This document shows positions 13,479 to 26,125 of a DNA stretch of 64,000 nucleotides, in pieces (position 1 is the stretch's first letter; the number at the start of each line of letters is the position of its first letter). A program made the translations under genes and the position numbers. The notes below the pieces were generated by a model. That model worked only from the letters and a program-made list of their open reading frames with translations. It did no database searches and was not told the DNA's origin. Origin of the DNA: an uncultured Trueperaceae bacterium. Lineage in GTDB: Bacteria > Deinococcota > Deinococci > Deinococcales > Trueperaceae. Location: positions 1-64,000 of the forward strand of contig CAWCXJ010000005.1 in the NCBI GenBank assembly GCA_963799485.1, given 5' to 3'.

Positions 13479-15311
13479 TTACACCGCCACCGAGTTGTTT
13501 TGGGTAGGGTCGTAATCCGGCGACTGGTGCCGAAAATAGGTGGTATAAAGCTCGGCGTAGTGCCCGCCCGCCGCCATCAGCCCGTGGTGGTCGCCGTGTT
13601 CGATGACTTCGCCTTCCCGTAGAACGATGATGCGGTCAGCCGAGCGAACCGTAGACAGGCGGTGCGCGATGACGATGGCGGTGCGGCCCCGTAAGACGAC
13701 CTCGAGCCCCTCCTGAATCTGCGCCTCGGTCAGCGGGTCCACGCTCGCGGTCGCCTCGTCCAGAATCAGGATGCTGGGGTTTTGCAAGAGCGTCCGGGCG
13801 AGCGCCACGAGCTGCCGCTGCCCCACCGAGATACCTTTACCCGCCTCGCCCACGTCGGTGTCGAGTCCTTGCGGCAGCGCGTCCAACCAGTCGCCGCCGC
13901 CGATACGCCCCGCCACCTCGCGTACCTGTTCATCTGACGCGCCCGCCGCCCCGTAACGGATGTTGTCCCGCACCGTACCGCCGAACAAAAACGGCGTCTG
14001 CTGGACGATGCCCAGGTGTTTACGGTAGGAGGGAAGCTCGAGCGTCCGAACGTCCACCCCGTCAATCTTCAGCTCACCCCCCTGAAACTCGTAGAACCGC
14101 GCCACCAGCTTGCCGAGACTCGATTTGCCCGCCCCGGTATGTCCGACGAGCGCCACCGTCTCCCCGGCGTGGATGGTCAGGTTGAAGTGGTCTAAGACCT
14201 GCTCCTGCGCGGTATAGCGAAAGTCCAGGTTCTTAAACTCGATGCGGCCTTTGACGTTCTCCAAAACTTTTGCGTCCGTCTGCACCACGCGCGGCTCGGC
14301 GTCTACGAGCGCAAAGACCCGTTCACTTGCCGACAATCCCAGCTGAAACTGGCTCCAGAACGACGCGATGCTCGTCAGGGGTTGCCACAGCAAGGCGATG
14401 CTCTCGGCAAACAAAAACCATTGACCGGGCGTCACACTGCCCGCGACGACGCTCGTGCCACCGAAATAGACGATGAGCGCCGTGCCGACGCCGGCAATCG
14501 TCCCGAGTACCGGGAATATCCCGCTGAAAACCAGCCCTTGCCGCAGGTTGAGCGCATACGACTGCGCGTTGACGCGGCTGAACTCGCCGTAAATCGCGCC
14601 CTCTTGTCGAAATGTTTTCGCTACCGAGATGCCGGTAATCGACTCCTGTACGTTGGCGTTGACTTCAGCCAAGACGCGCCGCGCCTGCTGTGTGGTGCTG
14701 CGGGCAAGGCGGCGAAAGGCGAGCGCCGCCGCCACGATAAACGGCGCAATCAACAGGGCAATCAGCGCGAGCTGCGCGTTGATAAAAAACAGCACCCCGA
14801 CGACGATGGCGACCTGGACAAGCTGGCTCATCAGGTTGAGGGTCAGGGTGACGACGGTGGCAAAATCCTGCGTATCGGAGGTAACGCGGCTGACGATTTT
14901 GCCGGTCGAAAACTCATCGTAAAACGACATATCGCGTTCTAAAACCGCGTCGAAGGCGTCTTTACGGAGGTTGAGCACGACGTCGCCGACGACCCGCGCG
15001 GTATAGCTCTGCCGAAAAAAGTTAAAGCCCCACGACAGTGCGCCCGCACTGAAAATCGCGGCGAGCAGCCACACCGTACTCTGCCACCGCGCCGTAACCG
15101 CGCCCGTTTGGGTTGTTAGCGCGTCGATACCCCTTGCGATCAAAATCGGCAAGGCTGCGTCCATCGCCGCTGTGAGCAAAATCGTCGTGGCAACAAAGAT
15201 CATCAGGCCGAAAAACGGGCGAAAGTAACCGACGATGCGCCCTAAAAGCTGCCGGTCGGAATAGGTGCGGTCGTAAGCCTCCGCGCTGAGGCCGTCCATC
15301 ACAAAACCCAT
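13479..15311 (-). CDS. Heterodimeric ABC exporter, subunit B (TMD-NBD)
   Basis: Walker A GHTGAGKS, degenerate signature ISVGQRQ, LDEAT; ATG 15311 after GAGGAGG. Confidence 0.9.
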   Translation of the reverse strand: MGFVMDGLSAEAYDRTYSDRQLLGRIVGYFRPFFGLMIFVATTILLTAAMDAALPILIARGIDALTTQTGAVTARWQSTVWLLAAIFSAGALSWGFNFFRQSYTARVVGDVVLNLRKDAFDAVLERDMSFYDEFSTGKIVSRVTSDTQDFATVVTLTLNLMSQLVQVAIVVGVLFFINAQLALIALLIAPFIVAAALAFRRLARSTTQQARRVLAEVNANVQESITGISVAKTFRQEGAIYGEFSRVNAQSYALNLRQGLVFSGIFPVLGTIAGVGTALIVYFGGTSVVAGSVTPGQWFLFAESIALLWQPLTSIASFWSQFQLGLSASERVFALVDAEPRVVQTDAKVLENVKGRIEFKNLDFRYTAQEQVLDHFNLTIHAGETVALVGHTGAGKSSLGKLVARFYEFQGGELKIDGVDVRTLELPSYRKHLGIVQQTPFLFGGTVRDNIRYGAAGASDEQVREVAGRIGGGDWLDALPQGLDTDVGEAGKGISVGQRQLVALARTLLQNPSILILDEATASVDPLTEAQIQEGLEVVLRGRTAIVIAHRLSTVRSADRIIVLREGEVIEHGDHHGLMAAGGHYAELYTTYFRHQSPDYDPTQNNSVAV

Positions 15312-15313
15312 GC

Positions 15314-17104
15314 TTAGTCCTCCTCGTAACGGGCGAAGATACGCTGGTAGAGGCTGCACCGCCCCAACAGCTCGTCGTGACTGCCCTGGTCTACCAAACG
15401 GCCTTGATGCAAGACCAAAATCTTGTCGGCCTGCCGAATCTGCGAGAGCCGGTGGGTGATCAGGAGCGTGGTGCGGCCCTCTAAAACCTTGTCGATGGCC
15501 CGCTGAATCTGGTCTTCGGTGGCGCTGTCGATAGCGCTCGTCGAGTCGTCCAAAATCAGGATTCTGGGGTCGGTCAGGAGCGCCCGCGCAATCGCTAAAC
15601 GCTGCCGCTGCCCGCCGGAAAGGGTGACGCCGCGCTCGCCGATGACGGTCGCGTAACCGTCGGAAAAGTGTTTGATAAACTCGTGGGCTTGCGCTGCTTT
15701 CGCCGCTGCTTCAATCGCTTCAGGTGTCGCTTTGGAGCCTAACCCGAAAGCGATATTGGCCGAAACCGAACGCGAAAAGAGAAACACGTCTTGCTCGATC
15801 ACCGAAATCTGCGAGCGGAGGGACTCGAGGTTCCAGTCCCGCACGTCCACCCCGTCAATTGTGATGCGACCCTGGGTTACGTCGTAGGCGCGGTTGACGA
15901 GTTTGGTCAGGGTGCTTTTACCCGAGCCGGTCTGTCCGACAATGGCCACCGTTTGCCCCGGCGACGCCGTAAACGTCAGGTCTTGCAAGCTCAGCTTGTC
16001 GCTGCCGTACCCGAACGACACGTTCTCAAACCTTACTTCACCGTCAATCGGTGCGGCGTAACCGGCGGTGTTCTCGTCTAGGTCGGTGTCTTCGCGGATG
16101 AGTTCTAAAATCCGCTCGGCCCCCGCAAAGCCGAGCTGTACGAGCGAAAAGGTAAAAATGGAGATAAACGCCGGAAACCGCAGCGTCCCCATCAGGCCCA
16201 TGTAGGCGACCAAATCACCGACCGAAATGCGGCCCAGCGCCAGGAGATAAAGCCCGTGCGCGAACGCGCCGCTGATGGCTAAGCCGATTAAGAGCAGCGG
16301 CAGATAACGCGCCTGCACCCGGCCTTGTTCGGCAAACGCGTCGCGGTAGAGCGCTGCGTCCCGGACGAATTTGCGTTTCTCCTGTGCCTCTTGCGCCGCG
16401 CCCTTGACAACTTCAATGCCGGTAATCGCCTCGTTAAGGCCGGCGTTCATCACGCCGAAGCGTTTGCGGAGCGCCGCCGACACCGGCCCGAGCCGGTTCA
16501 TGTAGTGCCGGAGCGCAAACACAAAGGTGATGACAAACAAAACAGGGGAGATGAGCAGGGTAGGCTTGAGCACCCCGATAAACACGAGCGGGACGACAAT
16601 CCCGATAATCGATTCGGACAACAAGGCCACACCGGGGTTCATCATCGGGTTGAGCTGCCGCACGTCGTTCCCGGCGCGGGCCATGATGTCGCCGACGCGC
16701 TGCCGGTTGTGAAACGTCTGGCTTTTGCCGAGCAAGCTCACGTAGAGTTCATCACGAGCGTCGCGCTCGAGCCGTTGCCCCAGCGTTTCGACCGAAAAAC
16801 TGTTGATGATGTCCACCACGCCGCGTACCAAAACGATGCCCAAGATAATCAGCGCAATCGTCAAGAGTCGCCGTACACTCGGCTCAGGCCGCAACACCTC
16901 GTCAAACGCCGTTCCGGTCAGGCGCGGCACTGCTGAAAAAAGTACGTTGGTCAAGATAGCGGCAGCGGCAAAGCTGAAAAGCAGGCGCGGATAGCGCCCC
17001 AAATGCGACAAAATCCAGCGGAGTGTGCCGGTGTCGTCGTAGCGGTACGCGCCCTCGACGCCGAATTCACGTTTGCCTTCCCGCGGCGGAAGTGTAACAG
17101 CCAC
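15314..17104 (-). CDS. Heterodimeric ABC exporter, subunit A (TMD-NBD)
   Basis: GQTGSGKS, LSGGQRQ, degenerate Walker B LDDST; probable GTG start at 17104. Confidence 0.9.
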   Translation of the reverse strand: MAVTLPPREGKREFGVEGAYRYDDTGTLRWILSHLGRYPRLLFSFAAAAILTNVLFSAVPRLTGTAFDEVLRPEPSVRRLLTIALIILGIVLVRGVVDIINSFSVETLGQRLERDARDELYVSLLGKSQTFHNRQRVGDIMARAGNDVRQLNPMMNPGVALLSESIIGIVVPLVFIGVLKPTLLISPVLFVITFVFALRHYMNRLGPVSAALRKRFGVMNAGLNEAITGIEVVKGAAQEAQEKRKFVRDAALYRDAFAEQGRVQARYLPLLLIGLAISGAFAHGLYLLALGRISVGDLVAYMGLMGTLRFPAFISIFTFSLVQLGFAGAERILELIREDTDLDENTAGYAAPIDGEVRFENVSFGYGSDKLSLQDLTFTASPGQTVAIVGQTGSGKSTLTKLVNRAYDVTQGRITIDGVDVRDWNLESLRSQISVIEQDVFLFSRSVSANIAFGLGSKATPEAIEAAAKAAQAHEFIKHFSDGYATVIGERGVTLSGGQRQRLAIARALLTDPRILILDDSTSAIDSATEDQIQRAIDKVLEGRTTLLITHRLSQIRQADKILVLHQGRLVDQGSHDELLGRCSLYQRIFARYEED

Positions 17105-17304
17105 ATCTACCTCTTTTCCCGCTCTCCAAGCCGTTTTCAGCACATTTTACGGTACTGCTGTACGCCTGCTGCCGGCTACTATACCTTAAAAATTGAGGTA
17201 AAAGCTCGAGGCCAAATTGCATCTCACAGGCCGCTCACTATCTTAGCGGTTTTACGGTGTGTTTAGGGGCTCGAGTCCACCTGAACGCCGACGTCTAAAG
17301 CTTT

Positions 17305-17538: not shown

Positions 17539-18447
17539 GTGCGGAACCTCACTTATCCCAAAACATTCGTTCAGTATCTCTTAGTCAGCGCCAAAGGGCT
17601 GGTCATGGGCGCAGCCGACGTCGTACCCGGCGTTTCGGGCGGCACGATGGCCCTCATCATGGGTATCTACGAAGAGCTGATTCACGCCATCACGCAGTTC
17701 TCCCGTAAAGACCTCTACGCCCGCATCTTTTCCGGCAAGCTGGGCAAAGCGCTGGGGCAGGTACATTTGGGCTTTTTAGTCGCGCTGGTGTCGGGTATCG
17801 CTGTTGCCGTCTTGAGCTTGGCAGGTGTTTTGGAATATTTGCTCGAGACTCGGCCGGTGTGGGTCTTTTCTTTTTTCTTCGGGCTTATCCTAGCCTCGGT
17901 CTGGGCAGTAGGCAAGCTGGTGCGGGGCTGGAACACGGTGACGGTGACGAGTTTTGCGGTCGGCGCAGCGCTGGCTTTTGTCATTGTCGGCCTGACACCA
18001 ACCCAGACGCCCGAAGCCTCGTGGTTTATCTTTTTGAGCGGCGCAGTTGCGATTTGTGCGCTCATCTTGCCGGGTATTTCGGGATCGTTTATTTTGCTGC
18101 TGCTGGGCAAATACGAGTTTATACTGGGCGCGGTCAACGATAGAAACTTGAGCGTCATCGTGGTGTTTGCGCTCGGCGCGGCGGTGGGATTGTTGGGCTT
18201 TGCCAAAGTGCTCAACTGGCTCTTGACGCACTACTACGACGTTCTGATCGCCCTCTTGTGCGGCTTTATGCTGGGGAGTCTGCGTAAAATCTGGCCGTGG
18301 AAACTCGAGCTGGAGGGCGGACTACTTACCCGCAACGTTTTGCCCGGGGGCGGGCTCGAGCTACTCTACGCGCTGCTGCTGGCTTTGGCGGGCGTGGTGC
18401 TGGTGCTGCTGATTTCAAAGCAGGGAGAGCGGCAGGAAGCTCGCTAG
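17539..18447 (+). CDS. DUF368 family protein (undecaprenyl-phosphate translocase type)
   Basis: KGLVMGAADVVPGVSGGTMALIMGIY and ILPGISGSFILL signature motifs. Confidence 0.9.
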   Translation: MRNLTYPKTFVQYLLVSAKGLVMGAADVVPGVSGGTMALIMGIYEELIHAITQFSRKDLYARIFSGKLGKALGQVHLGFLVALVSGIAVAVLSLAGVLEYLLETRPVWVFSFFFGLILASVWAVGKLVRGWNTVTVTSFAVGAALAFVIVGLTPTQTPEASWFIFLSGAVAICALILPGISGSFILLLLGKYEFILGAVNDRNLSVIVVFALGAAVGLLGFAKVLNWLLTHYYDVLIALLCGFMLGSLRKIWPWKLELEGGLLTRNVLPGGGLELLYALLLALAGVVLVLLISKQGERQEAR

Positions 18448-18487: not shown

Positions 18488-19303
18488 ATGTTAAAAAGTA
18501 CTCATGCGCCTACAGATTCAGCTCATCCTTTTAGCATAAAACGTATGACAAACCTCGAGCAGCTCTACTGGCAGCTACCCTACGAACTGCGCCGTACCCT
18601 TTTGAGAACGGCTTTTCCCGCTCGTTATCACGAACTGCAACTGCTGCGGCAAAGTGCGCCTGAGGGTAGGGCTACCCTTCGCCCTTTTGTCGAGAACAGG
18701 TGCATCTTCGTTCACATCCCTAAAACAGCCGGGGTTTCTGTCAACACGGGGCTTTTTGGTAGTAAAACCGGGTTCCACCGAAAAATCTCGAGCTATCAAG
18801 CTATCTTTAGCCAGCGTGAATACAACGACTACTTCAAATTTGCCTTTGTGCGTAACCCCTGGGACCGCGTCGCTTCAGCTTATCTTTTTCTCAAACAAGG
18901 GGGTTTGCACAGTACCGATCGGCACTGGGCCGAGAAACACCTGGCACCCTACGCTACGTTCGACGCTTTTGTCCGGGGTTGGTTGAAACCTGAGAACGTC
19001 CGTTTGAAGCACCATTTTATACCTCAGGCCGAGTTTATCTGTTTGCCGGGTAAAGCTGACACTGAACTCGATTTTATCGGTACTTATGAAAATCTGCGCG
19101 CCGACTACGACCACGTGCGGGATGTTTTAGGAACAGGCAAGGCGTTGCCGGAGAAAAACGTCACGGCGGGCAAACAAAAGGACTTTCGCTCGTACTACAC
19201 GGCTCAAACGCGGGCCATCGTCGCGGACGTGTACCGTAAGGATATCGAGCTGCTGGGGTACACGTTTCACGAGTATCTGCCGGTGCAGGCCGACAAGCGG
19301 TAG
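18488..19303 (+). CDS. Sulfotransferase family 2 protein
   Basis: 5'-PSB FVHIPKTAGVS, 3'-PB FAFVRNPWDR, HFIPQ; start may be a later Met (MTNLE). Confidence 0.85.
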   Translation: MLKSTHAPTDSAHPFSIKRMTNLEQLYWQLPYELRRTLLRTAFPARYHELQLLRQSAPEGRATLRPFVENRCIFVHIPKTAGVSVNTGLFGSKTGFHRKISSYQAIFSQREYNDYFKFAFVRNPWDRVASAYLFLKQGGLHSTDRHWAEKHLAPYATFDAFVRGWLKPENVRLKHHFIPQAEFICLPGKADTELDFIGTYENLRADYDHVRDVLGTGKALPEKNVTAGKQKDFRSYYTAQTRAIVADVYRKDIELLGYTFHEYLPVQADKR

Positions 19304-19549
19304 CAGCTCTGCGCGGTCGCCCGTGCTTACCGGGTCAGACCCCAAGCTGCAGCTACGGTGTCACGACCTGAGCGCTACCGCAACCGAACTCGAGCTGCTC
19401 CGTCTGTAGCGCTTTGGTGCTGCGCCAACCCAAGCAGATAGCACCTTGTCGAAGCCGGGTTGCCAAAACCCCTCAGCCGTTACCGCGTGCAAATCCCGGT
19501 TGGGCACACGAACTTCAAACCGCTTTGTGTCTGAACACCGCCCCTGCCC

Positions 19550-20707
19550 TTACCCAAACCCGCGCAGCCGCAGCGGTATTTGAGGAAATCCGTGCGCCAC
19601 TACCGCCGCCAGATAACGGCTGAAGTCTTGGGTCGTCTCACCGAGTTGCAGTGCGTGACCAAGCTCGGTGACGCGCTCCTGGGCGGCGGGCGCAGCGAAT
19701 TCGCTGAGTCTGCGGGTGAGCTGAGCCGGGGTCGGCACGTAAGCGCCGAGGGTGCTGCGTTCTAGAAACCGTACCAGCTTGGCCTCGTTGAGACCGGCGT
19801 AGCTCGAGACCAACACCGCCCTACCGACGGCGAGCGCCTCTGCGACCGACGCCGGCCCCGCCTTCCCGACCACCAGGTCGCACGCTGCCAGATAGTCGGC
19901 TACCCGGTCGGTCAAGGCGAGCGCGCAAACGTTCTCCAGTGTGTCCAGGCGCGCTTTAAGCGCCTGGTTACGCCCCGTCATAACGATCACCTGCGGACTC
20001 AGGGGATGACTCAACAGTGTTTCGATAACCCTGTCGGTGTGCTGCCCGACCCCCTCACGGCCTAACGACACGAGGCACGTCAGGCGGTCGGCTAAACCCA
20101 GCGCACGCCGCGCCGCTTCTTTGGTCGGTGCGCGCAGATACGCCTGCTGTACGGGATAACCGATGAGGTCTATCTTGTGCCCCGCGACGCCTAAACGCTC
20201 GAGATCGCGCAAGGCGCCCCGCGAGGGTACCGCCACGCGCTCGGCGTCGGGCTCGGCCCAGAGCGCGCTCGCGTCGAGCACTTCGGTCATAAAGGTGAGA
20301 ACAGGTAGCCTCAGGCCGTAGCGCCTTTGCGCCCGCGTCAGGGCGATGCTGACCCAGGCGTGGTTGGCTACGACCAAAGCCGGCCCTAAGGCGCTGAGGT
20401 GAGCGGCGGCGCGTCTGGCAAACGCGTCCAGCAAAAGGCGATGACCGTGGTTGGTCAGGCCCGGAAACGTGTCGAGCAGGCGCTGTCCGTAACGCGCGCT
20501 CCACGGATGGGTCAGCATCCAGGCCCAGCTCGCCTTGTGCCGCGCGTCGCGCTCACGTAGGCCCAGGTCAAGCATATAGTCTGAAATCGTCGTCTGGAAC
20601 GCGCCGGGATAATAGGTTTCCAACCCTTCAGCCATCGCTTTAGCCGTAGCGACGTGCCCACCACCCGCGGCAATCGTGGCGAAAAAGATATGGGGTTTGG
20701 CGTTCAC
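19550..20707 (-). CDS. MGDG-synthase/UgtP-like glycosyltransferase (GT28)
   Basis: GGGHVATAKA at the N-terminus, GRN, DLVVGKAGPAS; start overlaps the upstream stop. Confidence 0.82.
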   Translation of the reverse strand: MNAKPHIFFATIAAGGGHVATAKAMAEGLETYYPGAFQTTISDYMLDLGLRERDARHKASWAWMLTHPWSARYGQRLLDTFPGLTNHGHRLLLDAFARRAAAHLSALGPALVVANHAWVSIALTRAQRRYGLRLPVLTFMTEVLDASALWAEPDAERVAVPSRGALRDLERLGVAGHKIDLIGYPVQQAYLRAPTKEAARRALGLADRLTCLVSLGREGVGQHTDRVIETLLSHPLSPQVIVMTGRNQALKARLDTLENVCALALTDRVADYLAACDLVVGKAGPASVAEALAVGRAVLVSSYAGLNEAKLVRFLERSTLGAYVPTPAQLTRRLSEFAAPAAQERVTELGHALQLGETTQDFSRYLAAVVAHGFPQIPLRLRGFG

Positions 20708-21675
20708 TTTAAGCTTGCGACCGTTCGCGCCAGGCCTTCTTGCCAGCTGAAGCGGGGTACGTAGCCGAGTTCACGCGCCGCCGCAACGGTGGAAAAATGC
20801 ACGTCGCGCCGCATCAGCGCGCCCCGGTAGCGGGTCAGGGGAGGTTCCGACCCTATCCCCAAAAGCCCGTAAGCCTGTTCTACGGTTTCGCCTAAAGGTT
20901 CGCTCAAGGCTCCCGGCAGGCTCAGGCGTGGCGGGGCTGCGTGTAAGAGCCGAGTGAGTTCGGCAAACATCTCGTTCCAGCTCGGCGCACCCTCGTCGGC
21001 CAGTACATACGTTCGGCCCGCAGCTTCCGGTACCGTCCCCACCAGCCACAAACCGTCCACCAGATTTTCGCTGTAGGCCGTGTTGAAAACGGCACTACCG
21101 CCGTCTACCAGCGGAAACAGCCCCTTTTTAAGTGCCCCCGCGACGCGCACGAAATTGGGGTCGCGGGGGCCGAAAGGCCACAAACCGGGGCGGACGATAA
21201 CGGTTTCCAAAGCTGCACTCGTCAAGACATCTTCAGCTGCAATTTTTGAACGTGCGTATGCATTGATAACGCCGTCACGCGGTCTTTGCCGAGGGTCGGC
21301 GTCCCGGAAGCCGCTGTAACGGTGGACGGCGACGCTCGAGACCAGCACCAACCGCCCCACCCCGGCTTGTTCCGCCTCACGCAAGACGTTTCTTGTGCCC
21401 TGCACGTTGACCTGCTGAAAGGTCTTTGCGGGGCCGTAATCGGCGACCTTGGCAGCGGCGTGATAAACCAGCGCTACACCGTCAAACATACCGCCCAGCG
21501 TTTCAGACTTGCTGATATCGGCGCGGACAAGCTCGAGCCTGTCCGCGACACCCGCCAGCTTGTCCAGCCGCCCCCAAGGACTGACCAGAGCCCGCACCGC
21601 CGCGCCCTCAGCGAGCAGCTTTTCGACCAGGTGGCTGCCGATAAAGCCGTGTGCGCCCGTGACCAGCACCTTCAT
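20704..21675 (-). CDS. NAD(P)-dependent extended SDR / epimerase-dehydratase; candidate ceramide reductase (CerR-like)
   Basis: VLVTGAHGFIG, HAAA, YARSK catalytic motif; context next to spt and the GNAT. Confidence 0.8.
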   Translation of the reverse strand: MKVLVTGAHGFIGSHLVEKLLAEGAAVRALVSPWGRLDKLAGVADRLELVRADISKSETLGGMFDGVALVYHAAAKVADYGPAKTFQQVNVQGTRNVLREAEQAGVGRLVLVSSVAVHRYSGFRDADPRQRPRDGVINAYARSKIAAEDVLTSAALETVIVRPGLWPFGPRDPNFVRVAGALKKGLFPLVDGGSAVFNTAYSENLVDGLWLVGTVPEAAGRTYVLADEGAPSWNEMFAELTRLLHAAPPRLSLPGALSEPLGETVEQAYGLLGIGSEPPLTRYRGALMRRDVHFSTVAAARELGYVPRFSWQEGLARTVASLK

Positions 21676-21699
21676 ACCGTCACCATACACGCCGTAAAG

Positions 21700-22380
21700 T
21701 TACCAGAGTAAGCCTTGCCGTCCCAACACCGACGCGTCCGTCACCAGCCCAATCACGAGGTGGAGCAAAATAGGCCAGACCAAAGACCGGGTACGGAGCG
21801 CTAGAAAAGCGAACAAAAAGCCAGCCGGGAACGCCGCTAGTACCTCGGTCGGCGGTTTACCGACGTGAATCAGGGTGGAGAGCAGAACTTGCGCCCAGAC
21901 GGCGGCGGCGAGTCCCCAGCGGGGCTCGAGCACGCTCAGCATAAAACCCCGGTAAAAAAACTCGAACGCCGCGTAGTAGAGCGCGTACACTCCGGCCCAC
22001 GCCACAAAATGCCAAACCGACAAGCCCGGCCACGCTCCGGCCCAGGGATACGTTGCCTGCAAGCCTGGGTTACTGCTCCCCAGATAGATAACCCCTGCGA
22101 GTAGCACCCCAAGTCCTATAGTCAGCGGCAGGCCGACACGCCATCTGCCGAAGGTCAGCGGAATACGTTTCAGGTCGCCGCGCCAAAAGAGCAGGGCAGC
22201 CGGGATGAGAAGCAAAAAAAGGAGCGCCCAGCCGATATTGACGAGCGCCGCCGGCAGCGTTCGCGGCGCGTTACTTAGGAGCGCCGGCCCCGGGCTGCCG
22301 AGGTACCAGTAGCCCACCTGAACGAGCACGGCGGCGCTCAGGTAAAGGTTAAGAGACGAAGCGTAGCGGCGCACGAACAC
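21700..22380 (-). CDS. CPBP (CAAX/Abi) intramembrane protease family protein
   Basis: EFFYRG, HVGKP..E, RTRSLVWPILLH; GTG 1 nt after the upstream stop. Confidence 0.8.
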   Translation of the reverse strand: MFVRRYASSLNLYLSAAVLVQVGYWYLGSPGPALLSNAPRTLPAALVNIGWALLFLLLIPAALLFWRGDLKRIPLTFGRWRVGLPLTIGLGVLLAGVIYLGSSNPGLQATYPWAGAWPGLSVWHFVAWAGVYALYYAAFEFFYRGFMLSVLEPRWGLAAAVWAQVLLSTLIHVGKPPTEVLAAFPAGFLFAFLALRTRSLVWPILLHLVIGLVTDASVLGRQGLLW

Positions 22381-22381
22381 G

Positions 22382-23509
22382 CTAGAGCGGTTTTTGAAAA
22401 AGCCGGTAGGTCTTGTAGAGCGTCGCGCCCGCCGCCGCAATGCCTTTGTTGATACCGTCGTTGTCTTCTAGAATCCACGAGCATTCGCCGCGCATGTAAC
22501 CTTTGGCCCGCGTCCGTTTGATGACCTCGTCGATCAAGACCAGCTCGAGCCCCTTGTTCCGGTGTTCGGGGACGACGCCCAAAATCGGCAGCCGCGCCTG
22601 AGTGATGAGGCGTTTGCGGTTTAGGTAGTGAACGAAGCCGAACGGCAGCAGCCGCCCGTTCATCTTCTTGAACACCTGATTGGCGTCGGGCAAGACGAGC
22701 GCTAACCCGGCGACCTTCCCGCCCAGCTCCAGAAAGATCACCACGTCGGGATCGATGATCAGTTTGAGTTCGGCGGCGAGGTGATCGAACTCGGCTTCGG
22801 TGTAGCGGACAAAGCCCCAGTTGTGCTCCCAGACCTCGTTATAAAAATGCTTGAGCACGCCGAGTTCAGCGCCAAAGTGGTTTTTAAGGTCGGGCGTGCG
22901 AACCGTCAAGGGGTAGCGTTTGCGGGCGCGTTCGGCGAGGCGGTGCAAGCGGGCAAAATCGCTCTCGCAGTGGTCGAACAGCCAGGCGTAGAGGTCTTTG
23001 ACCTTGGTGTAGCCGGCAGCCTCGGCGTAGTGCGGATAAGCGGGCGGGCTCGAGGGCATCATCACATAGGGGTCGGTGCCAAACGCGTCAATTTGAAACC
23101 CCGAACCGTCGTTCATCGACGGGTTCACCGGCCCACGCACCGCGCTCCGGCCCCGGCCCTTTGCCCACATTTCCACAGTTGCAAAGAGCGCCTGCGCGAC
23201 TGCCTCATCTTCGGCCTCGAAAAATCCAAAAAACGCCAGATTGTCCTTGTGCGTGGCGTTGTGGTTGTCGTCGTCGATGGTGGCGACGCGCCCGACGACC
23301 CTTCCTGAACGCTCCGCCAAGAATAAGTCGACGACGGCGTGCTGGTAAAAAGGATTTTTTTTCGGGTCGAACCGTTCACGCTCCGACATACGGAGCGGTG
23401 GCACCCAGTGCGGGTCGTTCTTGTAAAACGCGTAAGGGAAACCGATAAACTTGTCTAGATCGCGTTTGCTTGCGACTTGATGAACCGCGACTTCGGCTGT
23501 ATTCGTCAC
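22382..23509 (-). CDS. GNAT-fold N-acyltransferase; candidate bacterial ceramide synthase (bCerS-like)
   Basis: FPYAFYKNDPHWVPPL...PKKNPF, GRVA, FGFFEA, GPVNPS, NWGFV, SWILEDN, KTYRLF; 375 aa; immediately downstream of spt. Confidence 0.78.
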   Translation of the reverse strand: MTNTAEVAVHQVASKRDLDKFIGFPYAFYKNDPHWVPPLRMSERERFDPKKNPFYQHAVVDLFLAERSGRVVGRVATIDDDNHNATHKDNLAFFGFFEAEDEAVAQALFATVEMWAKGRGRSAVRGPVNPSMNDGSGFQIDAFGTDPYVMMPSSPPAYPHYAEAAGYTKVKDLYAWLFDHCESDFARLHRLAERARKRYPLTVRTPDLKNHFGAELGVLKHFYNEVWEHNWGFVRYTEAEFDHLAAELKLIIDPDVVIFLELGGKVAGLALVLPDANQVFKKMNGRLLPFGFVHYLNRKRLITQARLPILGVVPEHRNKGLELVLIDEVIKRTRAKGYMRGECSWILEDNDGINKGIAAAGATLYKTYRLFQKPL

Positions 23510-23512
23510 GTT

Positions 23513-24823
23513 TTAGACGACCCCGAGCGAACGCCCAACACGGTGAAACGACTCGAGCAGCCGCCCCAGCTGCTCACCCGTGTGGTTCGCGTTGACTGAA
23601 GTGCGGATGATGCTGTGACCGGCCGGGACGCTCGGCGGCAGGGCGGGTGTGGTAAATACGCCGTCGTCCCACAAACCTTTCCAGAACGCCATCGTCAGCT
23701 CGTCGTCGCCGGTTAAGACCGGGACGATCGGGGTTTCCGAGCCGAGCGTATCAAAGCCCAGCGCGTTCATCCCGTCCCGAAGCTGCGCGACGTTCCGCCA
23801 CAGTTTTTTGCGGTGCTCCGGCTCGGCGTCCATGATTTCGAGCGCTTCTAACGCCGCCGCCATCTGCATCGCCGGCAGCGCCGCCGTAAAGATAAAGGGG
23901 CGCGCCTTATGCTTGATGTAGTTGACCACTTCGCGCGGCCCGCTGACGAAGCCGCCGACCGAAGCGAATGATTTGGAAAACGTCCCCAGAATCAAATCGA
24001 CTTCGTTCTCGAGCCCGTAATATTCGGCGGTGCCGCGCCCGGTAGCCCCCAAAACGCCCGTCGCGTGGGCGTCGTCGACAACCACGCGCGCCCCGTAACG
24101 TTTGGCGAGCTTGACGATACCCGGCAGTTTGGCGATATGTCCGGTCATCGAAAAAACGCCGTCGGTCACGATCAAACGCCCGCCCGGTTTGTTGGCGTCA
24201 CGCTCTAGTAAAGCCTCTAACTCGTCTAGACTGTTGTGTTCGTATTTACGCAGCGTGCCGTAAGAGAGCCGCGCGCCGTCGTACAGACAGGCATGGTTTT
24301 CGCGGTCGAAATAAAAAATATCGTGCCGTCCGGCAATCGCGCTCAGCACTGCCAGCGAGCCCAAAAATCCGGCGCTAAAGGTCAACGCGGACTCGGCTCG
24401 TAAAAATTCGGCCAAGCGGTGCTCGAGCGCTTCGTGCAGCGTCAGCGTCCCGGTTAAAAAGCGCGACCCCGTACACGACGTGCCGAAGTTGTCCAGAGCT
24501 CCCCGTGACGCGGTTTTAAGCCGAGGGTCTTGCGTCAACCCCAAATAATCGTTCGACCCGGTGATAATCATTTTGCGCCCGTCGACCACGACGCTGCCGC
24601 CGTGCTGTTCGGCAATCGGCTTAAAGTACGGGTGCATCCCGGCGGCGACCGCTTCGTCGGCGCGGGTAAAACTGTAGGCCTTGCTGAAAATATCGCCCGG
24701 TTGCTTTAGGTGAGTAGCGCGTTTGGGCTCCAAGACCCCGACCTGAGGGGGCGCTTCTGAAACTTCGGGGGCAACATCTACATCTATAGGTGCGGTACCT
24801 AGGGTATTCGCTGTGTCTGACAA
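23513..24823 (-). CDS. spt: Serine palmitoyltransferase-like alpha-oxoamine synthase (PLP)
   Basis: GSNDYLGL, GTSCTGSRFL, DGVFSM, DDAH, Spt-type GTFSKS lysine motif, RPFIFTAALP; TTG start after GGAGG. Confidence 0.78.
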   Translation of the reverse strand: MSDTANTLGTAPIDVDVAPEVSEAPPQVGVLEPKRATHLKQPGDIFSKAYSFTRADEAVAAGMHPYFKPIAEQHGGSVVVDGRKMIITGSNDYLGLTQDPRLKTASRGALDNFGTSCTGSRFLTGTLTLHEALEHRLAEFLRAESALTFSAGFLGSLAVLSAIAGRHDIFYFDRENHACLYDGARLSYGTLRKYEHNSLDELEALLERDANKPGGRLIVTDGVFSMTGHIAKLPGIVKLAKRYGARVVVDDAHATGVLGATGRGTAEYYGLENEVDLILGTFSKSFASVGGFVSGPREVVNYIKHKARPFIFTAALPAMQMAAALEALEIMDAEPEHRKKLWRNVAQLRDGMNALGFDTLGSETPIVPVLTGDDELTMAFWKGLWDDGVFTTPALPPSVPAGHSIIRTSVNANHTGEQLGRLLESFHRVGRSLGVV

Positions 24824-25035
24824 AATATCCTCCAGAGCGTCGGTACAAAGAAACTGCAAGAGAACCCGTTAGCTAAACCTCGTTGTCAAGACCTCCCCAA
24901 GGTCTAGTTGCGGCGCTCTCAGTAGCGTCTATCTCTGCACCTCAGCCGGTAGCTACAACTCACCGCCAGCCTCGATAAGCTAAAAATCCGGTGAGGGTAC
25001 CTTTAAGCTGCCTTCACCGGCAGCTTAACCTGCGC

Positions 25036-25065
25036 ATTCTAACCCAAGGGGCTGCCAAACGCCAA
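25036..25065 (-). promoter_or_regulatory. Putative promoter of the spt operon
   Basis: Minus strand TTGGCG-18 nt-TAGAAT; start site near 25030. Confidence 0.5.
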
Positions 25066-25200
25066 CGGTACTACCTTCCGACTGCTCGAAATCTGACACT
25101 GAGCTGACAGCAGGACTTCCGATTCGTAAGTTGCAGACGGGTTTCAACGCACGCCAACCCAGTTCCGAAAAACCGCAAAACCACGTGCTAGGGTAAGCAG

Positions 25201-25275
25201 ATGAACGGTTTTCTGGAGCCTTTTCCGAACCTCTTACCCGGCGTTGCTCGCGCGTCAGCCGCGGGTCGCCTGTGA
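25201..25275 (+). CDS. Putative 24-aa leaderless leader peptide upstream of purQ
   Basis: TG-c-TAGGGT extended -10, 6 nt, then ATG; TGA stop overlaps the purQ GTG. Confidence 0.4.
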   Translation: MNGFLEPFPNLLPGVARASAAGRL

Positions 25276-25988
25276 CGGCGCTCCCCGGTACCGGCGTGCA
25301 CGCCGTTGTCGTCCGTTTTCCCGGTTCGAACTGCGACGAGGACACCGTGTTCGCGCTCGCCTCACTCGGGGCACACGTCACGCAGGTGTGGCACACCGAT
25401 AAGCTCGGTAACGCCGACCTCGTGGTACTGCCCGGCGGTTTTTCGTATGGCGACTACCTCCGCAGCGGCGCTATGGCGGCCCTCAGTCCGGTGATGGCGG
25501 ACGTAAAGCGGTTTGCCGAACGCGGCGGGTTGGTTTTAGGGATTTGCAACGGCTTTCAGCTCTTGACCGAAGCGCGGCTGTTGCCGGGGGCGCTGGCCCG
25601 CAATACCGGACTACATTTCGTCTGTGAACGCGTTCATGCACGGGTTGAACAGACGTCTCCCTTCACTTCAGCTTGCAAACCCGGCGAGGTGTTGACGTTG
25701 CCGGTAGCCCACGGTGAGGGGCGTTTTGTTGCTGACAAAGAGGTATTGGAGGGGCTCGAGCACAACAACCGCGTCGTCTTCCGCTACTGCACGCCAGAGG
25801 GTGAGCTTACGGACGCCGCCAATCCGAACGGCAGCTTGAACCATATCGCCGGAATCGTCAACGAACGCGGCAACATCTGTGGGCTGATGCCGCACCCCGA
25901 ACGGGCCGTTGATCCGCTCTTGGGCGGTACGGACGGGCAGAAGGTATTTGAATCGGTATTTCGGGCGTTGGTGGGGGCTCGAGGCTAA
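25272..25988 (+). CDS. purQ: FGAM synthase glutaminase subunit
   Basis: FPGSNCD, PGGFSYGDYLR, GICNGFQ, GLMPHPER. Confidence 0.96.
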   Translation: MTALPGTGVHAVVVRFPGSNCDEDTVFALASLGAHVTQVWHTDKLGNADLVVLPGGFSYGDYLRSGAMAALSPVMADVKRFAERGGLVLGICNGFQLLTEARLLPGALARNTGLHFVCERVHARVEQTSPFTSACKPGEVLTLPVAHGEGRFVADKEVLEGLEHNNRVVFRYCTPEGELTDAANPNGSLNHIAGIVNERGNICGLMPHPERAVDPLLGGTDGQKVFESVFRALVGARG

Positions 25989-26125
25989 TCCAAAAGAAAA
26001 GATAATCCCAAACTTTTGCAGTGTAAGCTGCAGCTCTGTCATGTTTCAAGCAAGGAAAAACCCCATTGAGGGCTGTTTAAGGCGAGTGAACGAGCTAGGA
26101 ATACAACCGAATCGGCAAGAGCGCT

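Follow-up and report, generated by a model that had tools for sequence, protein, structure and literature searches.

A predicted operon for a ceramide-type glycolipid in the bacterial family Trueperaceae (Deinococcota)

Analysis of a 64,000-nucleotide stretch of contig CAWCXJ010000005.1 (GenBank assembly GCA_963799485.1; hereafter, the window) from an uncultured Trueperaceae bacterium revealed an operon of five genes that, judging from homology and gene context, is likely to direct the synthesis of a sugar-bearing ceramide-type lipid; a hexosyl-ceramide-type lipid is the most likely product. The genes encode an alpha-oxoamine synthase (AOS) resembling serine palmitoyltransferase (Spt), a GNAT acyltransferase related to the bacterial ceramide synthase bCerS, a membrane protein of the CPBP type, an extended short-chain dehydrogenase/reductase (SDR) and a glycosyltransferase (GT) of family GT28. 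The system is a lineage-specific variant of a known pathway, set apart by a reductase that forms a separate clade, a degenerate partner of the CPBP type and a head-group enzyme of family GT28, and not a new kind of system. The host genome (3.66 Mb, with the window as its contig C5) is 99.99% complete. An initial annotation, made from the sequence alone, had guessed at a probable Deinococcota origin, and the nearest homologues agree with this guess: the closest GNAT-bearing records are from Truepera sp. (85-87% identity) and a Trueperaceae bacterium, and a GNAT homologue with 69% identity is named Truepera radiovictrix.

The five minus-strand open reading frames (ORFs) fill positions 19550-24859 (Table 1). 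All of them were found with the domains attributed to them in the initial annotation when scanned against Pfam, and the motifs that it had listed (GTFSKS, DPHWVPPL, KKNPF and SWILEDN, together with YxxSK of the SDR, which reads YARSK) are present in the translations. With the CPBP-like gene starting at 22374, the spacers between AOS and GNAT, GNAT and CPBP, and CPBP and SDR measure 3, 7 and 9 nucleotides (nt), respectively, and the SDR and GT genes overlap by 4 nt; with all genes on the same strand, this is a compact single operon. The arrangement goes beyond chance, since the order AOS-GNAT-CPBP-SDR-GT recurs in eight of 20 loci that were chosen, with long contigs favoured, from 125 GNAT-bearing Deinococcota genomes. 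Two gene starts deserve comment. The longest ORF of the CPBP-like gene spans 21700-22440, and the version of 224 residues in the protein database places the start at 22374. In the AOS gene, no ATG or GTG lies ahead of the conserved core; the TTG at 24823 has a GGAGG 5 nt upstream, but the alignments of close relatives begin at residue 1-3 of the longer ORF, so the choice between 24823 and 24859 is not settled.

Table 1 Features of the five-gene operon and its surroundings in the window
Feature	Position	Strand	Details
AOS, Spt-like	23513..24823	-	436 aa from TTG 24823; longest ORF 448 aa from first TTG 24859
bCerS/YghO-family tandem-GNAT N-acyltransferase (predicted)	22382..23509	-	375 aa; weak Acetyltransf_1, 20.9 bits
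CPBP (Rce1-like) fold membrane protein, non-canonical motifs	21700..22374	-	224 aa; Rce1-like PF02517, 45.8 bits
Extended SDR of type A, predicted 3-ketoreductase	20704..21690	-	328 aa; Epimerase, 88.3 bits
MGDG-synthase-like GT28 lipid glycosyltransferase (predicted)	19550..20707	-	385 aa; Glyco_tran_28_C, 28.1 bits
Promoter-like site TTGGCG-18-TAGAAT	25036..25065	-	upstream of operon; sequence scan
Structured 5' leader, possible part only	24824..25030	-	fold -83.7 kcal/mol, z -4.2
Sulfotransfer_2 protein, convergent with the GT gene	18488-19303	+	Pfam/NCBIfam
PopT-like polyprenyl-phosphate transporter	17539-18447	+	Pfam/NCBIfam
Pair of MsbA-like ABC half-transporters	13479-17143	-	Pfam/NCBIfam

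The distribution of the system was assessed in 364 Deinococcota genomes, grouped into families f1 (Trueperaceae) to f6; the tallies include one unpublished genome, G325. The GNAT protein was matched in 125 of them, namely, in 104 of 127 genomes of f1, 19 of 19 of f3 and the single genome of f6, and in none of f2 (0/125), f4 (0/23) or f5 (0/68). Beyond the eight sampled loci with the complete order, three have the same genes without the GT, one has AOS-GNAT-CPBP, three combine AOS-GNAT with a different SDR (type B, see below) and a GT nearby, and one has AOS-GNAT only. AOS and GNAT are adjacent in 16 of the 20 loci; among 42 loci from other searches, which come from many phyla, the two genes adjoin in 26, and a CPBP gene occurs only in the seven loci from Trueperaceae. 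In three genomes of genus g16 (G264-G266), the genes for the Spt-type synthase, GNAT, CPBP-like protein and GT have all been retained, at dispersed positions of the chromosome. That they persist although unlinked would fit a shared function but is no proof of it.

A key question is whether the synthase belongs with Spt, as the initial annotation had proposed from the GTFSKS motif, or with the related enzymes BioF and Kbl. The protein matches PF00155 (Aminotran_1_2) with 198.9 bits. Compared with solved structures in the PDB, it scores best against the Sphingobacterium multivorum SPT (361 bits), followed by the BioF/KBL-type protein 7poa (283 bits) and the Sphingomonas SPT (274 bits), with E. 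coli KBL (270 bits), cysteate acyltransferase (252 bits) and BioF (about 200 bits) ranking lower. Its alignment to S. multivorum SPT (8guh) extends over residues 43-430 of 436, and the GTFSKS motif with the Schiff-base lysine is common to both. In a maximum-likelihood tree of the conserved core, which comprised 30 rows with no ALAS or CqsA among them, a clade of 24 rows (support 97/95) holds the window protein and every bCerS-linked synthase sampled. This Spt-like clade includes proteins from Trueperaceae, f3, a Rubrobacter plasmid, Acidobacteriota, Ignavibacteria, Melioribacteraceae, Balneolaceae, a metagenome-assembled genome (MAG) of Bacteroidetes, Nonomuraea and Solirubrobacterales, as well as the Sphingomonas Spt and the enzyme of the E. 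coli yghO cluster. Outside it fall E. coli BioF and Kbl, two Kbl/BioF-type proteins of f4/f5, which are Thermaceae-type enzymes, and two second copies from f1. The window synthase groups with Acidobacteriota and not with the Bacteroidota/Ignavibacteria branch. Across the 364 genomes, identity to the window AOS is bimodal, at least 56% in f1, f3 and f6 versus at most 44% in f2, f4, f5 and the second copies within f1.

It is highly improbable that the synthase is a housekeeping BioF or Kbl and its neighbours are unrelated to it. This explanation would draw on the fact that the window AOS is the sole alpha-oxoamine synthase of its 99.99%-complete genome, in which several medium-chain dehydrogenases also partly match the Tdh model, yet no Tdh in that genome reaches the cut-off (251 vs 458 bits), bioB stays far below its own (best 27.7 vs 225 bits) and no bioD was found. 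The organism is therefore probably unable to make biotin, given the completeness of the genome. Moreover, the tree parts the window protein from BioF and Kbl, many Trueperaceae carry a separate second copy of the Kbl/BioF type, and the synteny with GNAT is conserved. The Spt assignment of the initial annotation, for which it had suggested just such a tree, is thus borne out by the clade, the ranking of PDB matches (361 vs 283 and 270 bits) and the lack of bioB and bioD, and membership of the window AOS in the bacterial Spt-like clade is supported.

The second gene had been viewed as a relative of bCerS, and the homology searches uphold this view. Its match to Acetyltransf_1 is marginal, and neither NCBIfam nor the PDB sequence search returned a meaningful hit. 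Nevertheless, the protein is 33% identical to E. coli YghO (E 9e-57) and 32% identical to an N-acetyltransferase of a Sphingomonas parapaucimobilis locus (E 3e-50), with 98% of the query covered in both cases, and 61% identical to the product of a gene on plasmid 1 of Rubrobacter radiotolerans. The E. coli gene is accompanied by genes for a fatty acyl-AMP ligase, an epimerase-family protein, an acyl carrier protein (ACP), a pyridoxal phosphate (PLP) enzyme, lptG and lptF, and the Sphingomonas locus holds genes for an NAD(P)H-binding protein, ACP, a PLP enzyme, lptF/G and a desaturase. Proteins of the Rubrobacter, E. coli and Sphingomonas loci find their best matches in the host genome among the window genes, and for GNAT, the hit is reciprocal. 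A tblastn search of plasmid records with GNAT gave 45 records, and gene context was inspected for three. The AlphaFold model (mean pLDDT 86.3) has a tandem-GNAT fold, with 2wpw, 7q3a, 5kf1 and MshD (1ozp) as the best fold matches (E down to 3e-15). The link to Caulobacter CCNA_01212 (CC_1154) runs via the Sphingomonas and E. coli homologues and the following published passages: CC_1154 is the N-acyltransferase CerS (passage in PMC11324152), the sphingolipid operons of Caulobacter extend from ccna_01212 to ccna_01226 and include LptG2 (01213) and LptF2 (01214), and S. wittichii and E. coli UTI89 carry matching operons (passages in bioRxiv 10.64898/2026.04.12.717747). Full-length homology at 32-33% identity to the N-acyltransferase of two sphingolipid loci supports membership of the window protein in the bCerS/YghO family, for which N-acylation is the predicted activity. 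Separately, full-length GNAT homologues with 29-31% identity were encountered on MAG contigs labelled as Thermoplasmatota archaea (L084, L085), with no synthase nearby; either the contigs were wrongly binned or the family has genuine archaeal members.

The SDR had been likened to the reductase CerR. Its translation contains the Rossmann motif TGAHGFIG and the catalytic YARSK (YxxxK), and the best NCBIfam profiles are OleD (139.8 bits) and HpnA (135.5 bits), both far under their cut-offs. The same families lead among the profile matches of five further SDRs linked to such clusters, which were taken from E. coli, Rubrobacter, one MAG each of Acidobacteriota and Ignavibacteriaceae, and a Trueperaceae genome whose SDR is of type B: HpnA is the best profile in all five, and OleD-type models (NF042422 or NF042423) come second except in the Acidobacteriota protein, where they are third. 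The window SDR is the reciprocal best hit of the SDR of the Rubrobacter cluster (32% identity, 98 bits) and, weakly, of that of the E. coli locus (28.6% identity, 70.9 bits). In a tree of 24 SDRs whose base is without resolution, the window protein and its closest relatives (type A, seven rows) form a clade of their own with support of 100/100, separate from type B, which comprises Rubrobacter and three Trueperaceae proteins. The Rossmann motif, as read from the translation with no predictor, begins at residue 11, too close to the N-terminus for a signal peptide to precede it. Because of this and of the separate clade, we describe the protein as CerR-like in its working without placing it among the members of CerR. 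The likeness to CerR thus holds for the position in the operon and the best profiles and does not extend to established orthology; the SDR is predicted to work like CerR, and no orthology is claimed.

Another important question is what the CPBP-like gene contributes. It matches PF02517 at about twice the cut-off of 22.4 bits, its model reaches a pLDDT of 83.4, and the best fold matches are Rce1 (4cad; probability 1.0, TM 0.47, E 0.02) and then SpdC (6u0o), whereas a PDB sequence search with a profile of 13 rows gave no meaningful hit. The canonical CPBP motifs are EExxxR, FxxxH and HxxxN/D. Where a canonical CPBP protein of the host genome has EELFFRG, LLHP and HFLIN, the aligned window protein has FEFFYRG, LIHV and HLVIG. 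The Phe that stands for the first Glu of EExxxR and the Gly that stands for the Asn of HxxxN are kept in 13 of 13 orthologues, and F159, E160, H192, H227 and G231 are invariant or nearly so across them. Thus, the part of the initial annotation that named the family stands, on both profile and fold, while the designation as a protease is doubtful: with two canonical catalytic residues replaced, we do not file the protein as an active protease, and it is more likely to be a membrane partner or a lipid-handling subunit. SpdC of Staphylococcus aureus is a non-proteolytic CPBP protein.

The CPBP-like gene is the lineage-specific part of the operon, confined to Trueperaceae, a point overlooked by the initial annotation, as were the altered motifs. 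Matches at E <=1e-15 were found in 86 of the 364 genomes, all in f1, and a comparison of coordinates placed the match next to that of GNAT in 80 of these genomes; the others are G264-G266 (dispersed), G251 and G244 (different contigs) and G275 (without a GNAT match). A profile search of 5.8 billion proteins returned only 166 relatives at E <=1e-5, and among the best 120 of these, the source names were all Trueperaceae, Deinococcales or a generic protease name. In the synteny sample, all loci with a type A SDR (11 of 20) have the CPBP-like gene directly upstream of the SDR gene, and it is absent from the three Trueperaceae loci with a type B SDR beside GNAT and from the Rubrobacter plasmid locus. 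A prediction of an SDR and CPBP-like complex scored 0.00, which counts neither for nor against binding. A more far-reaching idea is conceivable though rather unlikely: in most Trueperaceae, the CerR-type reductase may have been replaced by a module of a distinct cytoplasmic SDR and a degenerate CPBP-fold protein that would dock the SDR on the membrane or pass the 3-keto lipid to it, by analogy with S. aureus, where the inactive CPBP protein SpdC is a partner of the enzyme SagB. All steps of the pathway would then lie on the cytoplasmic face, among them the transfer by a GT28 that would have changed its acceptor from diacylglycerol to ceramide. Under this idea, the "1,2-diol" peaks of T. radiovictrix, which were assigned by retention alone, could be derivatives of the long-chain base.

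The last gene of the operon is matched by PF04101 (Glyco_tran_28_C) above the cut-off of 22 bits, and its best PDB hit is the Arabidopsis monogalactosyldiacylglycerol (MGDG) synthase MGD1 (4wyi; E 4e-23, residues 13-357). The GT family occurs in 101 of the 364 Deinococcota genomes. Operon membership and co-distribution at the phylum level point to ceramide as the acceptor, which we infer for the window enzyme. Proven ceramide glycosyltransferases of Caulobacter belong to another GT family.

Several findings weigh against assigning the operon to a glycosylated ceramide. The synthase stays under every NCBIfam equivalog cut-off: the best model is NF047600 (SerpalmtaseCFB) with 428.6 bits versus a cut-off of 640, and bioF is second with 375.3 versus 426.45. 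Because the former score falls short of 640 bits, we filed the protein under the wider Spt-like clade and not under the CFB equivalog. The amino acid that it uses is not readable from the sequence. Orthology of the SDR to CerR is not established by the 24-row tree. The matched relatives of the GT (MGD1, diacylglycerol glucosyltransferases and MurG) use diacylglycerol or lipid I and not ceramide, and a GT paralogue with 48% identity is encoded elsewhere in the genome, on contig C4. In four of the 20 sampled loci, none of the other genes lies near GNAT; in these four, an Spt-type synthase lies elsewhere in the genome.

The first two of these points would leave room for a synthase that takes glycine, alanine, cysteate or some further amino acid in place of serine, with a deoxy-ceramide-like, sulfonolipid-like or other lineage-specific N-acyl amino lipid as the product. 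The clear relationship to cysteate-C-fatty acyltransferase (252 bits) and the mention of environmental 1-deoxy-ceramides in a passage of a Black Sea study (PMC11334938) also fit such a product, but we regard it as quite unlikely, since characterised SPTs score highest against the window protein, which shares a clade with the Sphingomonas Spt, and a free hydroxyl group, as provided at C1 by serine, is required by the glycosyltransferase of the operon.

The relatives of the GT bear on a different alternative, in which the first genes make a plain (dihydro)ceramide and the GT28 protein, though encoded in the same operon, is simply a conventional glycolipid synthase acting on diacylglycerol. The best solved relatives of the enzyme, MGDG synthase and a processive diacylglycerol glucosyltransferase, fit this alternative; the GT is missing from the immediate cluster in three loci that keep AOS-GNAT-CPBP-SDR and lies several kb away in others, and Truepera is reported to contain glycolipids (passage in PMC3072082). 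However, within the phylum the GT family is found only in f1 (96 of 127 genomes) and f3 (4 of 19), which are two of the three GNAT-bearing families, and is missing from all 216 genomes of f2, f4 and f5; moreover, the GT gene runs over the stop codon of the SDR gene here, with a 4-nt overlap, and comes immediately after the SDR gene in eight of the 20 loci. On this evidence, the alternative appears unlikely. The paralogue on contig C4 lies in a region (125784-132248) that also encodes an LPG-synthase-TM-like protein, a GT2 glycosyltransferase, an MMPL transporter and a DUF512 radical-SAM-like protein, with a second, shorter MGDG-synthase-like ORF approximately 9 kb away; this region may be a separate glycolipid locus.

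The synthesis of a glycosylated ceramide, which we prefer, could proceed as follows. In a first condensation, the Spt-like enzyme would form a 3-keto long-chain base from serine and a fatty acyl thioester. Since no gene for an ACP or an acyl-ACP synthetase is present, this thioester is probably an acyl-CoA, and its chain is probably branched C15 or C17, as in the fatty acids reported for T. radiovictrix. The tandem-GNAT protein of the bCerS family would add the second acyl chain to the amine, and the extended SDR would reduce the 3-keto group, most likely on the cytoplasmic side because it lacks a signal peptide. Finally, the MGDG-synthase-like GT28 would glycosylate the free hydroxyl at C1 with a hexose taken from a nucleotide sugar. 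The CPBP-fold protein would be a Trueperaceae-specific accessory that travels with the type A SDR and that acts as a membrane partner or a lipid-handling subunit more probably than as a protease.

Comparison with known systems shows which parts of the operon are shared and which are particular to it. Like the Caulobacter locus with Spt, bCerS (CerS, CC_1154 = CCNA_01212) and CerR, the window combines a PLP-dependent condensing enzyme, a large GNAT protein and an epimerase-family reductase, and it differs from loci of the Caulobacter type by the inserted CPBP-like gene. The Sphingomonas and E. coli yghO loci share with it a full-length GNAT homologue and a synthase of the same clade, but the proteobacterial loci contain ACP and acyl-ACP synthetase genes and lptF/G paralogues, none of which was found in the window cluster in Pfam and NCBIfam scans or from gene context; the initial annotation had already remarked on the lack of a dedicated ACP gene in the cluster. 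The position of the acyltransferase gene also differs: here it follows spt in the same operon, whereas cerS of alpha-, beta- and gamma-proteobacteria is always in a different operon according to a passage of PMC11324152. The reductase, with its own clade and no signal peptide, contrasts with CerR of Caulobacter, which is reported to be periplasmic in a passage of PMC11087976.

Among solved structures, the S. multivorum SPT (3a2b, 8guh) is the closest to the window synthase, which differs from it by an N-terminal extension of approximately 40 residues and a score under the CFB cut-off. The S. multivorum enzyme is of the ACP-independent type and uses acyl-CoA. MGD1 (4wyi) and the diacylglycerol glucosyltransferases of the UgtP type show a full-length GT-B likeness to the window GT and act on membrane lipid acceptors, the predicted acceptor being ceramide here and diacylglycerol there. 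The likeness of the CPBP-like protein to Rce1 and SpdC is modest; the window subfamily is restricted to Trueperaceae, has altered motifs and is embedded in a lipid operon.

A similar cluster outside Deinococcota lies on plasmid 1 of the actinobacterium Rubrobacter radiotolerans (NZ_CP007515.1, 14230-17597), where a PLP enzyme, GNAT and an NAD(P) oxidoreductase follow one another in the same order. Its synthase is 74% identical to that of the window and nests inside the Trueperaceae clade, and its GNAT is the 61%-identical homologue noted above; the differences are the type B SDR, the lack of a CPBP gene and an LTA-synthase-family gene in place of GT28. The cluster looks like the result of horizontal transfer between two radiation-tolerant lineages. 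As a separate observation, Rubrobacter and Truepera lineages are recorded together on rocky shores in a passage of one survey.

In the literature searched, to which the phylum lists of Stankeviciute 2022 and the supplements of PMC11334938 did not belong, we found no report of sphingolipids or ceramides in Deinococcota, in agreement with the initial annotation, whose author was not aware of any demonstration of sphingolipids in this phylum. Passages of PMC11334938 and its preprint describe Spt-like genes in MAGs of 38 phyla and a rise in candidate phyla from 9 to 40, as well as 1-deoxy-ceramides in the environment; the main text of PMC11334938 is without mention of Deinococcota, and its supplements or the lists of Stankeviciute 2022 may include the phylum. 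For T. radiovictrix, passages of PMC3072082 describe the polar lipids as an uncharacterised mixture of glycolipids and phospholipids and two acyl compounds as 1,2-diols, an assignment made from equivalent chain length alone.

The region upstream of the operon contains a promoter-like site (Table 1), whose -10 region GGGTAGAATG/GGGTACGATG aligns in six of six relatives. The scan that detected it is by itself no evidence, since the one site in the scanned region compares with about 1.1 expected by chance. Between this site and the start of the synthase gene, the leader of approximately 200 nt contains a hairpin followed by CCGGTGA...TCACCGG and a U-run, an arrangement that looks attenuator-like. 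Three members of the genus share a nearly identical leader block of approximately 55 nt, which is unrecognisable in more distant relatives, and an Rfam search over 19000-26000, leader included, gave no match. A terminator scan gave three weak intragenic hits versus 8.2 expected by chance, and these were disregarded. The only other ORF near the cluster (25025-25396, 123 residues) is without a family hit and overlaps the start of purQ; we treated it as spurious. On the downstream side, the sulfotransferase, the PopT-like transporter and the two MsbA-like ABC genes were rejected as parts of the system because none of them accompanies the cluster in any of the 20 loci sampled from relatives, including two loci of the same genus. 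No RNA sequencing runs containing the operon were listed.

These findings extend rather than overturn the current understanding, since the core pathway is known and has been predicted in dozens of phyla. The GT28 protein would be a candidate ceramide glycosyltransferase, and the non-canonical CPBP protein may be a hitherto unrecognised accessory factor in the synthesis of bacterial ceramides. For Caulobacter, it is still debated when and where the reduction takes place; here, the reductase looks cytoplasmic. For the family Trueperaceae, which includes the radiation- and salt-tolerant genus Truepera with its uncharacterised envelope lipids, the operon predicts a lipid class, given its GNAT match in most genomes, and the cultured T. 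radiovictrix probably carries the same five-gene operon.

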